A DNA stretch of 63,935 nt, counting the filler, from Globobulimina sp. (Eukaryota), in NCBI GenBank assembly GCA_003354225.1. It is 55 parts of 55 records of this genome, joined end to end, with 100 filler letters (N's around TTAATTAATTAA, not from the genome) between each part and the next. Parts side by side here need not be neighbours in the genome. Positions count along the whole stretch, not along the records: positions 18,644 to 19,708 come from PIVH01024450.1; 54 more parts are not named here. The stretch is one strand, 5' to 3'. Position numbers and translations under genes: made by a program. Of this stretch, positions 17,479 to 60,546 are shown piece by piece (position 1 is the stretch's first letter; the number at the start of each line of letters is the position of its first letter). A model generated the notes under the pieces. That model was not told the DNA's origin. It ran no database searches and saw nothing but the letters and a program-made list of their open reading frames with translations.

Positions 17479-18150
<672 letters not shown>

Positions 18151-18427: not shown

Positions 18428-18509
18428 TCATCGCCGTAGGATTTGAACCTACATCCATTTGGTTTGCAATCCATTTAAACCAATGCTCTGCCAATTGAGC
18501 TAGGCGACC
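18428..18509 (-). tRNA. tRNA-like element (Ala-type UGC anticodon if an 8-nt loop insertion is removed); probably a pseudo-tRNA or SINE head
   Basis: GGTCGCC-TA-GCTC AATTGGCA GAGC-A-TTGGT[15-nt loop]ACCAA-ATGGAT-GTAGG TTCAAAT CCTAC-GGCGATG; D and T arms intact, 1:72 mismatch. Confidence 0.6.
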
Positions 18510-18643
18510 TTCCATATGACTTCCGAATGCTTTTTACTTGATTNNNNNNNNNNNNNNNNNNNNNNNNNNNNNNNNNNNNNNNNNNNNTTAATTAATTAAN
18601 NNNNNNNNNNNNNNNNNNNNNNNNNNNNNNNNNNNNNNNNNNN

Positions 18644-18913
18644 ATCTCTGCTCCATTGGACCGTTGTTCCGTTGCAGTAAATAACGAGTTTTTCGTTTTC
18701 GTACCGATCGTAGCAGAAATTTAGCACAGCACCATCGGTTCTTTTCATAAATGAAAACAAGCACTGGCTCGGCACCGAACTTGTCGTGCCAGTGGTGGTG
18801 GTGGTAACAACTCGTTCTGGACTGTCCTTCGTTGTGATCAACATAAAAATTGATATGAAAATTAAAACGGCTCCGGCCGTGCCGACCAATGCGATATTTT
18901 TGCGAGTATCCAT
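18644..18913 (-). CDS. Small N-anchored membrane protein with Thr-rich stalk, partial
   Basis: MDTRKN + TM IALVGTAGAVLIFISIFMLI + TTTTTGTT + Cys-containing ectodomain. Confidence 0.65.
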
Positions 18914-18946
18914 AGTCGTTGAATTAATGAGACTATATCCGCGTTC

Positions 18947-18954
18947 TTTTTATA
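18947..18954 (-). promoter_or_regulatory. TATA box (TATAAAAA) ~34 nt upstream of the ATG at 18913
   Basis: Canonical TATA sequence at a compact promoter-like spacing. Confidence 0.5.
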
Positions 18955-18960
18955 CCTATA

Positions 18961-19095
18961 CGAGGATGAGAACCTCATCCCCCCCCTCGTGCGCCGCCTT
19001 AGAGGCGGCGCACCCAAACCCAGGGAAGGGCTGGGCGGAGCTCCGCCCAGGGGGGTTGGCCAGGCTGCCTAAGAGGCAGCCTGGTGGGGGCTCGC
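18961..19095. repeat. GC-rich cluster of four perfect hairpins/palindromes between divergent ORFs
   Basis: GGATGAG-AAC-CTCATCC (18964-80); GTGCGCCGCCT-TAG-AGGCGGCGCAC (18989-19013); CTGGGCGGAGCTCCGCCCAG (19031-50); CCAGGCTGCCT-AAG-AGGCAGCCTGG (19060-84). Confidence 0.95.
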
Positions 19096-19230
19096 AAAAA
19101 AAACTGGTTGAGGTGTCGGGCTCAGGCTTAGGATTCGGCCGACTCATGCTTCGCATTCGTCATATCGCTGCGCGTGGCCTCACCTCAAGCCTTGCGAGAA
19201 GCCCGAAACCTAAACCTTTTTTTTCAGAAT

Positions 19231-19683
19231 ATGACCGAACGTCAGCTCAGAATTGTTGTGCGTCAAACCATTATGTGGGCCACAGGGAAACCGATACGCG
19301 AACGACATTTCATTTTACCTACATTGATAGAAGCCATGACAGAAATAAAAGATCCGATATTACAACGATATGCTAATTTTTTGCCTGTAGAAAAAGTTAT
19401 TCAAGCTGTATTCAAGGATAATATTATAAATTGGGGCCGAATAGTGTCGATTTTCGCATTTTGTGGCATGATGGCTAATCTGAATAAAAACAGACCTAAT
19501 TATTTATTAAAATTGGAGTACGATTTTGCAAGAGCCCTGTTTGTGCACGTGGGAGCCTGGTTCCACAACCATAATGGCTGGTACGGTTTTGAACGATTTA
19601 TGGACAAAAAGACAGATATTGGATTATTGATAATGGCTGTTTCTATAATTTTGTTTTATTATTCGATAAAATACTTCGTATAA
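19231..19683 (+). CDS. Bcl-2 family apoptosis regulator, compact intronless 150 aa (virus-like)
   Basis: BH1 VFKDNIINWGRIVSIFAFCG; BH2 WFHNHNGWYGFERF; C-terminal TM IGLLIMAVSIILFYY; first ATG at 19231. Confidence 0.9.
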   Translation: MTERQLRIVVRQTIMWATGKPIRERHFILPTLIEAMTEIKDPILQRYANFLPVEKVIQAVFKDNIINWGRIVSIFAFCGMMANLNKNRPNYLLKLEYDFARALFVHVGAWFHNHNGWYGFERFMDKKTDIGLLIMAVSIILFYYSIKYFV

Positions 19684-19808
19684 ACACTTTTCACCAAAAA
19701 ATGCTTAANNNNNNNNNNNNNNNNNNNNNNNNNNNNNNNNNNNNNNNNNNNNTTAATTAATTAANNNNNNNNNNNNNNNNNNNNNNNNNNNNNNNNNNNN
19801 NNNNNNNN

Positions 19809-32303: not shown

Positions 32304-32390
32304 GCGTGGATGATCCTCACTGGTGTGGTGTGCAGACTTCAAATCTGTAGCGGTGTAATTACCGAGTGGTTCGATTCCACCTTCTGCGCG
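32304..32390 (+). tRNA. Eukaryotic selenocysteine tRNA (anticodon UCA)
   Basis: GCGTGGATGATCCTCACTGGTGTGGTGTGCAGACTTCAAATCTGTAGCGGTGTAATTACCGAGTGGTTCGATTCCACCTTCTGCGCG: 9/4 fold with a U:U pair in the acceptor stem, long variable arm, G73. Confidence 0.95.
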
Positions 32391-37276: not shown

Positions 37277-38340
37277 ACTATAGCAGAACCATTGAATGCA
37301 TTGAATCGTGGTAAAGATGGACCAGATATTTCCAAGAAGTGGGGACCAGAACAGGAAGAAGCATTCAATGTTTTGCGAGGATTATTGACATTGAAACCAA
37401 TCATGTGTTTTCCAGACCATAACAAACCATTCTACTTGTTTACAGATGCATCGGCATATGGTATTTCTCGAGTATTGTGTCAGTACGATGAAGACGGACT
37501 ATTACATCCAGTTGGATTTGCATCAAGAACATTGTCAAAAGCGGAGAGAGCTTATTCAACCACAGACAGAGAATGTTTAGCTATTGTTTGGAGTTGTGAT
37601 TTCTTTCGTCCCATTATTTTAGGTCGTGAACTTCATGTGTACACTGATCATAAACCATTGGAATCGGCATGGGGATCCAAGTCGGCCAAAGTTCATGAAC
37701 GTCTGACCAGATGGGCATTGAAAATGGCTCATTATCAGCCATTCACAATTTCACATTTGCCTGGAGAAGAAAATGTAGTTGCTGATTACTTGAGTAGAAG
37801 TCCAGTTGCTTGGTGTTTGGAGAAGGAACGTAGTGCTTATTTCGACAATATGACTCATAAACATGGAGATGATGAGGACAAGTTCAAGACTTATTATGAC
37901 AGTTATGAGAACTACTTGGATACCATAATGACATTAGAGAAGCCAAAGAAAGCACAAGTTTGTTTGCAACAGAATCGTGGCGAGCCGAATGATCAATTCA
38001 TGGAACGAATGTTGTTTGAATCGGTTTCGGGATTATTGGTTATCGACGAGAAATGCCCGGTTTGTGATATTATAAACGGCACTGTGAATGGAAGAGAAAT
38101 TGAAGTGAGAGAACCAACTGATAATGTACCAACAATAGTTTGTGAAACTCGTCTATCGGCAGCTTTCGCAACTAGACCAGCTTTGATTAATAATCCACCT
38201 GTTCAGAAGACAACGACTCGTGGACGGACTCGGAACTCGGTACTTTTGAAGTTGAAGGATAATGATTTGAACGATCCAAAGAGAGGAATGTTTGTTGAAG
38301 CTGAAGCGCAAACGGAAGGTATTTCTATGGCTCAATTTTA
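37277..38340 (+). mobile_element. Ty3/Gypsy LTR retrotransposon pol (RT connection + RNase H)
   Basis: WGPEQEEAF, PFYLFTDASAYG, PVGFASRTLS.AE..YSTTDRECLAIVW, VYTDHKPL, RLTRWAL, NVVADYLSR. Confidence 0.95.
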
Positions 38341-38617
38341 NNNNNNNNNNNNNNNNNNNNNNNNNNNNNNNNNNNNNNNNNNNNTTAATTAATTAANNNN
38401 NNNNNNNNNNNNNNNNNNNNNNNNNNNNNNNNNNNNNNNNTGTTTGTATACGTTCAAATTCCCGATGATCGTAAAACGTTGTTTCCGTTCGAGACGACGT
38501 CGAGAACTGATATGACGTTTTCAGATCAGAGCGGGTAACGTTTCTGTGCGGTTTCCAAGCAAACTGCGCATTTTCCAAGCTTAACTTTTTCAGCTTGGCA
38601 AAGTTTTTTCTTTTTAT

Positions 38618-39356
38618 CATGGATTTCATGTTTCTGTTTATTGTCTATATAGCAACTCCATCGTCGCCGATAGGTATATCAAACCGATGGGAACCGGTTC
38701 AACCGCTTCCACCGCAACCATCGCAATCACAACAGCCGCATTGGAATTGTCGAATATGTACATATGCAAATCACCCACAAATGAAATGTTGTGAAATCTG
38801 TGAGCAACAAACAAATCCAAATAATGAGCAACCGCCTGGTTTTGGAACGCGTCGCAAAAATGCAGCAAATACTCACAACGCGCCGCCACAAAATATAAAT
38901 AAGCATTTAAAAGGCGATTATATTAAAGACAGTGAATTAAAAATGATGCTTGAAATGGGCGTATTTGATGAATATGAAGAATCTCAACAATTTGAACGAG
39001 AAAAACAAAAAAAAGAAGACAAATTAGAAGAATTACGGCAAAAAATTGTGGCGTTGGAGGCAGAGAAACAACAAAAACAACAAATACAGCCTACATTTGT
39101 GCCAATTGCAAATAATACGAATCTGAGTCTAAACGTATTGCCTCCACCGTCTATGAATAAGCAACAAATTGGAAATGCATCGGATCGTACCGTTGCTATT
39201 TATCGTCAAGAACCGCCATATTATGGGTCGCCAATGATGGTTCAAAATTATTTATCGCATAATATGTGTCAAAGAGCAATACGAGGAACACAGTATGGAG
39301 CGAACAATGTAAATAGATTAAGAAATTATTCTCGCGGCGGAAGGAAAATAGGTTAA
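38618..39356 (+). CDS. RanBP2-type zinc finger + coiled-coil protein
   Basis: WNCRICTYANHPQMKCCEICEQ. Confidence 0.75.
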
Positions 39357-59383: not shown

Positions 59384-60446
59384 GACATTAGATGTCCGGG
59401 GCCCGTCCGACCGCTGTGGGCCTATGATCGAGTTCGGAGAGAAGGATTATGGACAAAACTAAGAGACTATGGATTCCCAGAACAATTGGTAAGGGCAATA
59501 GAAAGTAGCTACCACAATCCTGGAGCAATAATTTCATTTCAAAATCAAAATACCGAAAGACTATCAATGAACGTAGGACTCAGACAAGGATGTACTATGT
59601 CACCCATATTATGGGCATTATTCATAGCAGACCTTGGAAAAGAAATCGAAAAATCAAACTTAGGCATAACAATCGGACCAAATAACGAAAACAAAAATCT
59701 ATCTGGAATTTTCTTCGCCGACGATATGCTATTATTTGCCGCTTCAGAATCCAAAATGGAAAAATTACTAAACATTGTTGGTAATTACGCTCAAAAATGG
59801 AAAATAGAATTTTCGGGCCCTAAAAGTATGGTAATACCACTAAAACGTGATATAGACGAAACCAAAAATTGGAAAATAGGAAAAATGTACATTACCGAAA
59901 ATGAAGAAAAAATCATCAAAATTCACGAACAACGCGAAGCTAAATATCTAGGAATTACCATCAACAAACATAGAGGCAGTATGTTTCAAAAACATAGAAA
60001 CGATCTAAGAATTAGAACCGAACGAGAAACTACAAGATGCTATAGACCAGCAATCGCAACTGCAAGATCAGTACTCTATGGAACAAAAATATGGGAAGTA
60101 TATGTAGTTCCAAAAATCCTACATGGAATAGCTGCAATAACATATTCTACAAATACTTTCTCTGGAATAGAAGTTCAACAACGCGAATTCATCCGATCAA
60201 TATCTAAACTTCCAAGACATACACATAGAGCCGTTATATACGGTGAAACCAAACTACTTCCAATGCAAATGGAAGCCGACAAAAGAACAATGAACTACCA
60301 TCAACATCTAAATAATCTAAACAACAACAATATTGCAAAAATTGTTTTATTAGAACAACGTCAAATATATACACAAGATCCAAATCAAACAACTTGGTTA
60401 AAACATGCCATTAATATCTATAATAAATACAACCTCGATCATAACG
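59384..60446 (+). mobile_element. Non-LTR retrotransposon reverse transcriptase
   Basis: GLRQGCTMSPILWALFI, IFFADDML, KYLGI. Confidence 0.95.
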
Positions 60447-60546
60447 NNNNNNNNNNNNNNNNNNNNNNNNNNNNNNNNNNNNNNNNNNNNTTAATTAATT
60501 AANNNNNNNNNNNNNNNNNNNNNNNNNNNNNNNNNNNNNNNNNNNN

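Follow-up and report, generated by a model that had tools for sequence, protein, structure and literature searches.

The DNA analyzed here (the window) is a 63,935-nt stretch from Globobulimina sp. with a GC content of about 30%. Within it, we examined an intergenic gap of 317 bases (18914-19230), 261 of which are occupied by a cluster of GC-rich hairpins and an adjoining foldable element, module B. On one side of the gap lies a small membrane-protein gene (18596-18913, minus strand; ATG at 18913), which is cut by an N mask, matches no Pfam family above cut-off and has four known relatives, one of them adjoining a second hairpin cluster (locus L004, described below). A TATA-like box, TATAAAAAG (18946-18954, minus strand), read from the sequence and presumably acting as such, is located 41 nt before the ATG of this gene and 9 nt from the first hairpin (H1). 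On the other side, a Bcl-2-like gene (19231-19683, plus strand; Pfam PF00452, E = 6e-12) starts with an ATG at 19231 that is immediately preceded by T8-CAG. A search of viral contigs guided by the membrane protein confirmed none of 38 candidate stretches, and its sole match in prokaryote genomes (L021) was discarded as a chance 15-residue match on a Bacteroidales contig.

The Bcl-2-like protein carries an NWGR motif and a C-terminal hydrophobic tail, and is encoded in a compact, AT-rich, protist-like genome. Only two relatives were found among 5.8 billion clustered proteins (59% and 55% identity), both on contigs of about 1 kb with the source given as 'ena', and the closest Atlas clusters were mostly chordate. 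A search of viral contigs guided by this protein returned one distant match (L020, a 208-kb viral contig, 30% identity), in which no GC-rich hairpins were found. In addition, a public sequencing run (X1), available as contigs, containing 78% of the sampled sequence words of the locus and possibly the window's own source, holds a second contig over 19396-19577 (depth 3.1 versus 5.0) with 27 mismatches to the Bcl-2-like gene in 182 positions; its source is a paralogous gene, a diverged allele or a related organism present in the sample.

To place the locus, 43 of the 62 ORFs of at least 120 aa were scanned against Pfam, leaving out overlapping shadow frames. Matches included a choline-transporter-like protein, PHD fingers, a PI3/PI4-kinase domain and the Bcl-2 family domain, as well as MutS domain V, SHMT, gypsy-type reverse transcriptase (RT) and RNase H, cyclophilin, GH30, WD40 and DEAD proteins. 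The 64 kb also contain two tRNA genes and no rRNA gene: one is a tRNA-Sec gene (32304-32390, plus strand; 74 bits), and the other (18428-18509, minus strand; 82 nt), whose anticodon was unreadable by ARAGORN, probably holds an intron. Because ordinary eukaryotic genes are present there (a PI3K fragment, tRNA, Bcl-2-like, MutS and SHMT), the window is, as judged from its gene content, eukaryotic chromosomal DNA using the standard genetic code. No candidate mobilizing enzyme was seen in the window, and the 43 scanned ORFs included no Rep/HUH, capsid, packaging or RAYT gene.

Other features of the window deserve mention. It contains 108 runs of exactly 44 N (4752 N in total), arranged in pairs 12 nt apart about every 1165 nt, which are masks and not assembly gaps. 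These runs cut most ORFs to less than about 370 codons and also mimic long open frames. Alternative genetic codes were rejected, as the long 'ORFs' of about 388 codons that they produced consist of N runs, and the apparent gain is an artefact of these runs and of AT-richness. A 50% GC island (17479-18114, minus strand, continuing to about 18400) encodes only the catalytic end of a PI3/PI4-kinase, in pieces distributed over three reading frames, the frame shifting three times within about 300 nt. This island, which has the appearance of a degenerated gene fragment that differs in base composition, adjoins the tRNA gene and the repeat-filled intergenic gap. Fragments of gypsy-type retrotransposons (RT, RNase H) are found at 37292-39356 and 59486-60502 (plus strand).

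Four GC-rich hairpins in the intergenic gap

An earlier sequence-only reading of this gap had described four perfect GC-rich stems of 7, 11, 10 and 11 bp, and all four were present at those positions. They lie within 121 nt (18964-19084) with a GC content of 72%, against about 30% for the window. H1 (18964-18980) is a 7-bp perfect hairpin (GGATGAG/CTCATCC) with the loop AAC, and a run of eight C spans 18979-18986. H2 (18989-19013, plus strand) is a 25-nt unit with an 11-bp stem, the loop TAG and the tip CCT-TAG-AGG, and is followed by the linker CCAAACCCAGGGAAGGG (19014-19030). H3 (19031-19050) is a perfect 20-bp palindrome, CTGGGCGGAG/CTCCGCCCAG, which lacks the CCT-WAG-AGG tip and contains two inverted GGGCGG boxes. 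H4 (19060-19084, plus strand) is again a 25-nt unit with an 11-bp stem, here with the loop AAG and the tip CCT-AAG-AGG. The apex GCCT-(T/A)AG-AGGC, which the same reading had noted in H2 and H4, matches only these two places in the window, and the A8 run that it had placed after the cluster is found at 19096-19103.

This four-stem cluster is far beyond chance. Among 5000 dinucleotide-preserving shuffles of the 135-nt region, 34 contained any perfect stem of at least 10 bp (observed stems: 11, 11, 10 and 7 bp) and 74 contained two or more stems of at least 7 bp (observed: four). The region was also folded both as single-stranded DNA and as RNA, yielding z-scores of -6.5 for DNA (197 nt) and of -5.7 (plus strand) and -7.3 (minus strand) for RNA (291 nt), with none of 200 shuffles folding as well in any of the three. 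In the minimum-energy folds of both kinds, the C-runs, including the C8 run, pair with later G-runs and close a multibranch structure around the hairpins, as had been suggested. Of 32 perfect hairpins detected in the window (stem of at least 8 bp, loop of at most 8 nt), only H2, H3 and H4 have a GC content of 0.68 or more, while the remaining 29 do not exceed 0.46.

The sequence-only reading had named the cluster a candidate replication origin or structured control element, and had likened it to the hairpin origins, termini and packaging signals found in small DNA viruses and mobile elements; in such a reading, an initiator protein would recognize the hairpins. Clustered perfect hairpins with a common tip do resemble initiator-recognized origins, and GC clusters are likewise the building blocks of yeast mitochondrial ori/rep sequences. 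Nevertheless, the loops of the cluster measure 0-3 nt and cannot be likened to a nick-site loop; in the hairpin origins of Rep-encoding single-stranded DNA replicons, the nick motif sits in a loop of at least about 9 nt with a Rep gene alongside, and neither feature was found here. The neighbors are the ordinary eukaryotic genes listed above, the 43 scanned ORFs offered no Rep/HUH, capsid or packaging gene, the hairpins are multi-copy (see below), and X1 contigs over the locus, which cannot show molecule ends, revealed no contig end, inversion joint or read-end pile. We therefore consider an origin, terminus or packaging signal highly improbable.

Other candidate identities were also discarded on reading the sequence. 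Helitrons have a GC-rich hairpin about 10 nt before a CTRR 3' end, a 5' TC end and insertion between A and T; no CTRR/T junction follows the last hairpin on either strand. Likewise, a SINE with an A-tail, telomere-like G4T2 linkers and GC-box, AP-2 or NFI sites were considered, none of which was convincing.

A second locus and the 25-nt unit

A metagenome scan with a 21-mer of H4 returned four loci, of which one, L004, is a true relative; the others (L001-L003) were rejected, one being a bacterial terminator-like hairpin and two lying in GC-rich bacterial contigs. L004 is found among the unassigned contigs of what its source describes as a foraminifer-associated metagenome (PMC6783311). It is oriented opposite to the window and contains three 25-nt units (655-679, 688-712 and 723-747) and an imperfect fourth hairpin. 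The cluster lies directly upstream of a homologue of the window's membrane-protein gene (162 aa; ATG at 828), and a TATA-like sequence, TATATAAATAAG (787-798), starts 41 nt from this ATG, the same spacing as in the window. The gap between cluster and TATA-like box is 9 nt in the window and 24 nt in L004.

Comparison of the two loci showed that the cluster core is better kept than the neighboring coding sequence. The clusters are 81% identical over 101 nt and include a 40-nt identical block (19050-19089, plus strand, corresponding to 689-650 of L004) that comprises the G-run/TTGG linker, H4 and TGGGG, whereas coding DNA reaches 71.6% identity in its best-kept 95 nt, the membrane proteins are 53% identical over 90 unmasked residues, and little of the promoter flanks can be aligned. 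On the far side of the L004 cluster, a tandem array of 140-150-nt repeats takes the place of the Bcl-2-like gene, and downstream synteny with the window is absent, which associates the cluster with the membrane-protein gene alone. The array, at 1-600, comprises three copies each of a 64-nt and a 31-nt block, and several small ORFs with no Pfam family are found downstream. It should be noted that L004, rather than being an orthologue, could be a paralogous locus of the same organism or of a close relative, so that its likeness to the window does not prove conservation across species. The sequence-only reading had held that homologous loci retaining the genes and losing the stems would speak against it; the one homologous locus, L004, keeps the hairpin cluster.

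All five hairpins with a CCT-NAG-AGG tip in the two loci have a stem of exactly 11 bp and a 3-nt loop, and all five are oriented alike relative to the membrane-protein gene. When these five units (four of them distinct) were aligned, all 44 pair cells held Watson-Crick pairs and none held G-U; 6 of the 11 stem pairs have changed on both sides, 5 are invariant and none has changed on one side only. Neither the pairing nor the covariation score was reached by any of 500 shuffles, and partners slid by 1-3 columns were 34-48% paired. As the sample is small and the units were picked as hairpins, the pairing is partly circular; what is informative is that pairs change on both sides beneath an unchanging tip and that G-U is lacking altogether. 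The suggestion that different stems under a shared apex reflect selection for structure plus a recognition loop is supported by these units, which keep both the tip CCT-WAG-AGG and the 11-bp stem while no pair is broken.

The units also differ between the loci in a way that is not limited to base substitutions. H4 is identical to unit U3 of L004, and the upper 17 nt of H2 are identical to U1, the lower stem differing by two compensatory pairs. The outer stem of H3 is common to U2, with GGAGCTCC where the tip would be, and the arms of H1 are the outer arms of U1 with the tip missing. Because the H3 tip is replaced and the H1 tip is missing relative to the L004 units, the cluster is, on this sequence comparison, a mosaic produced by unit gain, loss and truncation between copies.

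Compensatory changes of this kind, together with the very strong folds of a GC-rich island in AT-rich DNA, could also be expected of a multi-copy gene for a structured small RNA, or of a cluster of short hairpin RNAs, transcribed from the gap, for which the T8 runs available on either strand (19217-19224 on the plus strand; the complement of 19096-19103 on the minus strand) might act as RNA polymerase III stops. However, no G-U pair or bulge occurs in the 39 stem pairs of the window cluster or in the 33 of L004, and either strand folds equally well, which is unusual for a selected RNA. The loop-less 20-bp palindrome is a DNA feature, and unit content varies among copies. Moreover, Rfam returned no match in the window at gathering score, and searches with E values up to 10 at the site and up to 1 in L004 returned only sub-threshold noise from miRNA models (16.8 bits versus a gathering score of 100). 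A small-RNA gene is thus unlikely, and since the stems of both loci contain neither G-U pairs nor mismatches, the constraint would appear to act on the DNA, that is, on both strands, and not on an RNA.

Copies in a sequencing run and the repeat-family reading

Within the window itself, a blastn-short search with both clusters and module B found no further copies, and no other unit was found in the remaining 59 kb of unmasked sequence. A covariance model of the 25-nt unit, run with filters off on the window, L004 and L020, recovered only the known units and, weakly, H3. A scan of prokaryote genomes with a 31-mer gave no match, and scans of viral contigs with three unit patterns gave 0, 15 and 0 matches, all 15 of which were dismissed as chance, most of them lying in what appear to be coding regions of contigs with no relation to the locus. 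A protein query made from the translated cluster, meant to detect spurious ORFs over other copies, yielded no candidate. An exact look-up of four ORFs over the clusters found none in the protein collection, an exact match being impossible for the three that start with GTG or TTG.

X1 contains the cluster hairpins in multiple or dispersed copies. Ten X1 contigs matched 18644-19708, and the depths given in this text are those of the eight listed. Among these, locus-specific contigs have depths of 6.18, 5.53 and 5.02, whereas a 65-nt unitig over 19045-19089, with two differing letters, reaches 269.6, about 48 times the locus contigs in this one run; as summed contig depth is not copy number, we read this value as tens of copy-equivalents or a high-copy replicon and not as a count. 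Two further contigs among the matches listed (depth 4.65, 4 differences; depth 8.21, 3 differences) match 18979/80-19015 and beyond this H2-like match have different AT-rich flanks. The letters beside the high-depth unitig spell the neighboring units of L004, with one difference in 23 letters on one side, indicating that L004 is the common form of the element and the window a variant. The X1 contigs break within the cluster, as expected of a repeat. Small differences between X1 and the window comprise an extra A in the A-run, C>T at 19093 and T>C at 19175. Two other runs of the same sample (X2 and X3) did not cover the locus. Although copy number is approximate, the hairpins are therefore not unique to this locus, and, being present both in the short-read-derived X1 contigs and in the separate L004 assembly, they are not the amplification fold-back artefacts that, according to the sequence-only reading, would have refuted it.

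The depth of 270 could come from a high-copy replicon such as an organelle genome, or from other organisms in the sample. One may thus ask whether the family is mainly mitochondrial, with the nuclear copies being transferred fragments: GC-rich palindromic clusters are described as classic in AT-rich mitochondrial DNA (PMC4478555), and nuclear DNA of Volvox is reported to carry organelle-type palindromes (PMC2670323). Against such an origin, units are carried by at least four loci at nuclear-like depth or in nuclear-like context (the window, L004 and the X1 contigs of depth 4.65 and 8.21), and the promoter-proximal position is alike in two of them. Furthermore, the stems seen in full in the window and L004 are perfect, whereas the nuclear copies in the Volvox account are degenerate (PMC2670323). 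An organelle-derived family consequently seems improbable to us.

Perfect stems on both strands, a loop-less palindrome, multiple copies, mosaic structure and a core better kept than coding DNA together fit a DNA-level palindromic repeat of the REP/BIME or mitochondrial GC-cluster kind. We propose, with a probability of roughly 0.5, that the cluster is one copy of a small modular family of GC-rich palindromic repeats in the nuclear genome of an AT-rich eukaryote. The building block of this family would be the 25-nt unit, with its 11-bp Watson-Crick stem, its 3-nt loop (T/A)AG and its invariant tip CCT|WAG|AGG. Units of one cluster would point one way, joined by C-run or G-run/TTGG linkers, and would be gained, lost, truncated or swapped among copies, making each copy a mosaic. 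The element would be copied or homogenized as DNA, and its stems may be kept perfect because a hairpin or cruciform with a fixed tip is the substrate of a putative structure-specific protein or repair process. It would settle, or survive, where the DNA lies open immediately before core promoters, and its co-option there as an upstream promoter element is possible. Mobility of the element is inferred; comparison of the two loci revealed no empty site, target-site duplication or terminal inverted repeat for the cluster.

That the cluster stands beside a TATA box at identical places in the two loci is as compatible with a promoter function as with a selfish element. The palindromes may be double-stranded sites or extruded cruciforms for a transcription factor, serving as the upstream element of a divergent promoter pair, with the other copies being promoters of co-regulated genes. 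Several observations favor such a cis-regulatory cassette: the cluster lies close (9 or 24 nt) to a TATA-like box that stands 41 nt from the ATG in both loci, and the genes that follow are homologous; its orientation relative to the gene is alike in both loci; H3 has two inverted GGGCGG boxes, which we take to resemble GC boxes; and two other X1 copies have a TATA-like sequence on the gene-facing side too, within flanks or loose ends of about 30 nt. Perfect inverted repeats are, in addition, described as generally enriched upstream of start sites (PMC13155455). On the other hand, TATA-like words are common in DNA of 30% GC; the 65-nt stretch with a depth about 48-fold that of its flanks, and the 40-nt block kept unchanged in two loci with proteins of 53% identity, show a repeat-like conservation that is unusual for factor-binding modules; and a strict regulatory grammar would not tolerate units swapped or truncated between loci, as in H3 and H1, which have no tip. 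The structured control element suggested by the sequence-only reading is thus possible as a minority reading insofar as the cluster abuts a TATA box in both loci, but the multi-copy hairpins are not a single control site.

The repeat-family reading can be extended to a nuclear counterpart of REP/REPIN, in which the 25-nt hairpins would be recognized and copied as single-stranded or cruciform DNA by a dedicated structure-specific enzyme (e.g., a HUH-type nuclease), and would then have been domesticated as portable upstream promoter modules, here for the membrane-protein gene and perhaps the Bcl-2-like gene. This extension is speculative and has, in our view, a low probability.

Beyond the four hairpins to which the sequence-only reading had drawn attention, module B (19096-19224) fills the rest of the gap. 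With A8 and T8 as its borders, it forms an imperfect hairpin of 129 nt (fold z = -4.9), and a 657-nt X1 contig (depth 23.1, among the matches listed) matches its positions 19109-19154 with six differences and has other flanks. The best explanation for module B is a second, lower-copy foldback repeat beside the cluster.

Comparison with known palindromic repeats

A survey of 118,019 genomes describes eukaryotic perfect inverted repeats as AT-rich and GC-depleted (PMC13155455), and for this reason a family of GC-rich palindromes would be atypical for a nucleus. Small GC-rich palindromic repeats are well known as units in bacteria and in AT-rich organelle genomes, and in the open-access literature we found no account of a nuclear family in which stem length is fixed, the tip never varies and the stems change by compensation with no G-U pair. 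Should the family be confirmed genome-wide, it would offer a tractable case for the recognition of DNA hairpins and their propagation in a nucleus, a test of promoter supply by such elements in compact protist genomes, and a practical marker that breaks short-read assemblies of poorly known organisms.

Among eukaryotic elements, MITEs and foldback elements are small non-coding nuclear repeats that are present in tens of copies, fold into hairpins and often lie near genes. The cluster differs from them in being a row of independent mini-palindromes and not one long foldback, and the terminal inverted repeats and target-site duplications typical of MITEs were not seen at the cluster ends in the window and L004, which, with two copies, are provisional. 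Of the two elements in the gap, module B comes nearer to a foldback MITE.

Bacterial REP, BIME and REPIN elements, as described (PMC3733652; PMC3116915), are likewise many-copy, intergenic palindromic units of 20-40 nt that form mosaics with fixed linkers and are thought to be recognized as DNA hairpins. Here, however, the host is a eukaryote, and the GTAG or CGTC end tag of REP/REPIN is present in none of the five units, which begin with GTGCG, CCAGG, ATGAG or CCGGG.

The palindromes of the Volvox carteri organelles and nucleus resemble the present family in several respects, as that report presents them: they are hairpins whose 3-5-nt loop motif stays constant while the stems vary, one unit can be inserted within another, and copies also occur in nuclear DNA (PMC2670323). 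They differ in that the mitochondrial repeats have an AT content of 71-84%, the loops of both organelle families read TAAA/TTTA, and the repeats are abundant in the organelles (PMC2670323). The nuclear copies of Volvox are degenerate and were judged inert (PMC2670323), whereas those of the window and L004 are GC-rich, perfect and located by promoters.

Finally, the palindromic GC clusters of yeast mitochondria are reported to be mobile, with units that 'merge and shuffle' (PMC4478555). The likeness to these clusters, such as GC42, extends to short GC-rich hairpin units dispersed in AT-rich DNA, constrained stems, an intergenic location and the shuffling of units into composite arrays (PMC4478555). 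A duplicated AG target site is a further mark of the yeast clusters; for the present family, the flanks of the other copies extend over 30 nt and include no empty site. Short GC-rich palindromes in an AT-rich genome are what we found here (72% GC versus about 30%, perfect stems), as are dispersed copies and unit shuffling (depth 269.6 versus 5-6, with copy number approximate; unit content differing between the window and L004). Mitochondrial residence is where the two part: the window carries PI3K, Bcl-2-like, MutS, SHMT and gypsy RT sequences and, in 64 kb, two tRNA genes and no rRNA, and its context, with TATA boxes and nuclear-type genes, is nuclear, in contrast to that described for the yeast clusters (PMC4478555). 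The unit itself, with its fixed 11-bp stem, 3-nt loop and invariant CCT-WAG-AGG tip, also sets the family apart from GC42 as reported (PMC4478555). The loops are the most variable part of GC42 (PMC4478555), whereas the tip is the most constant part of the units in the window and L004.
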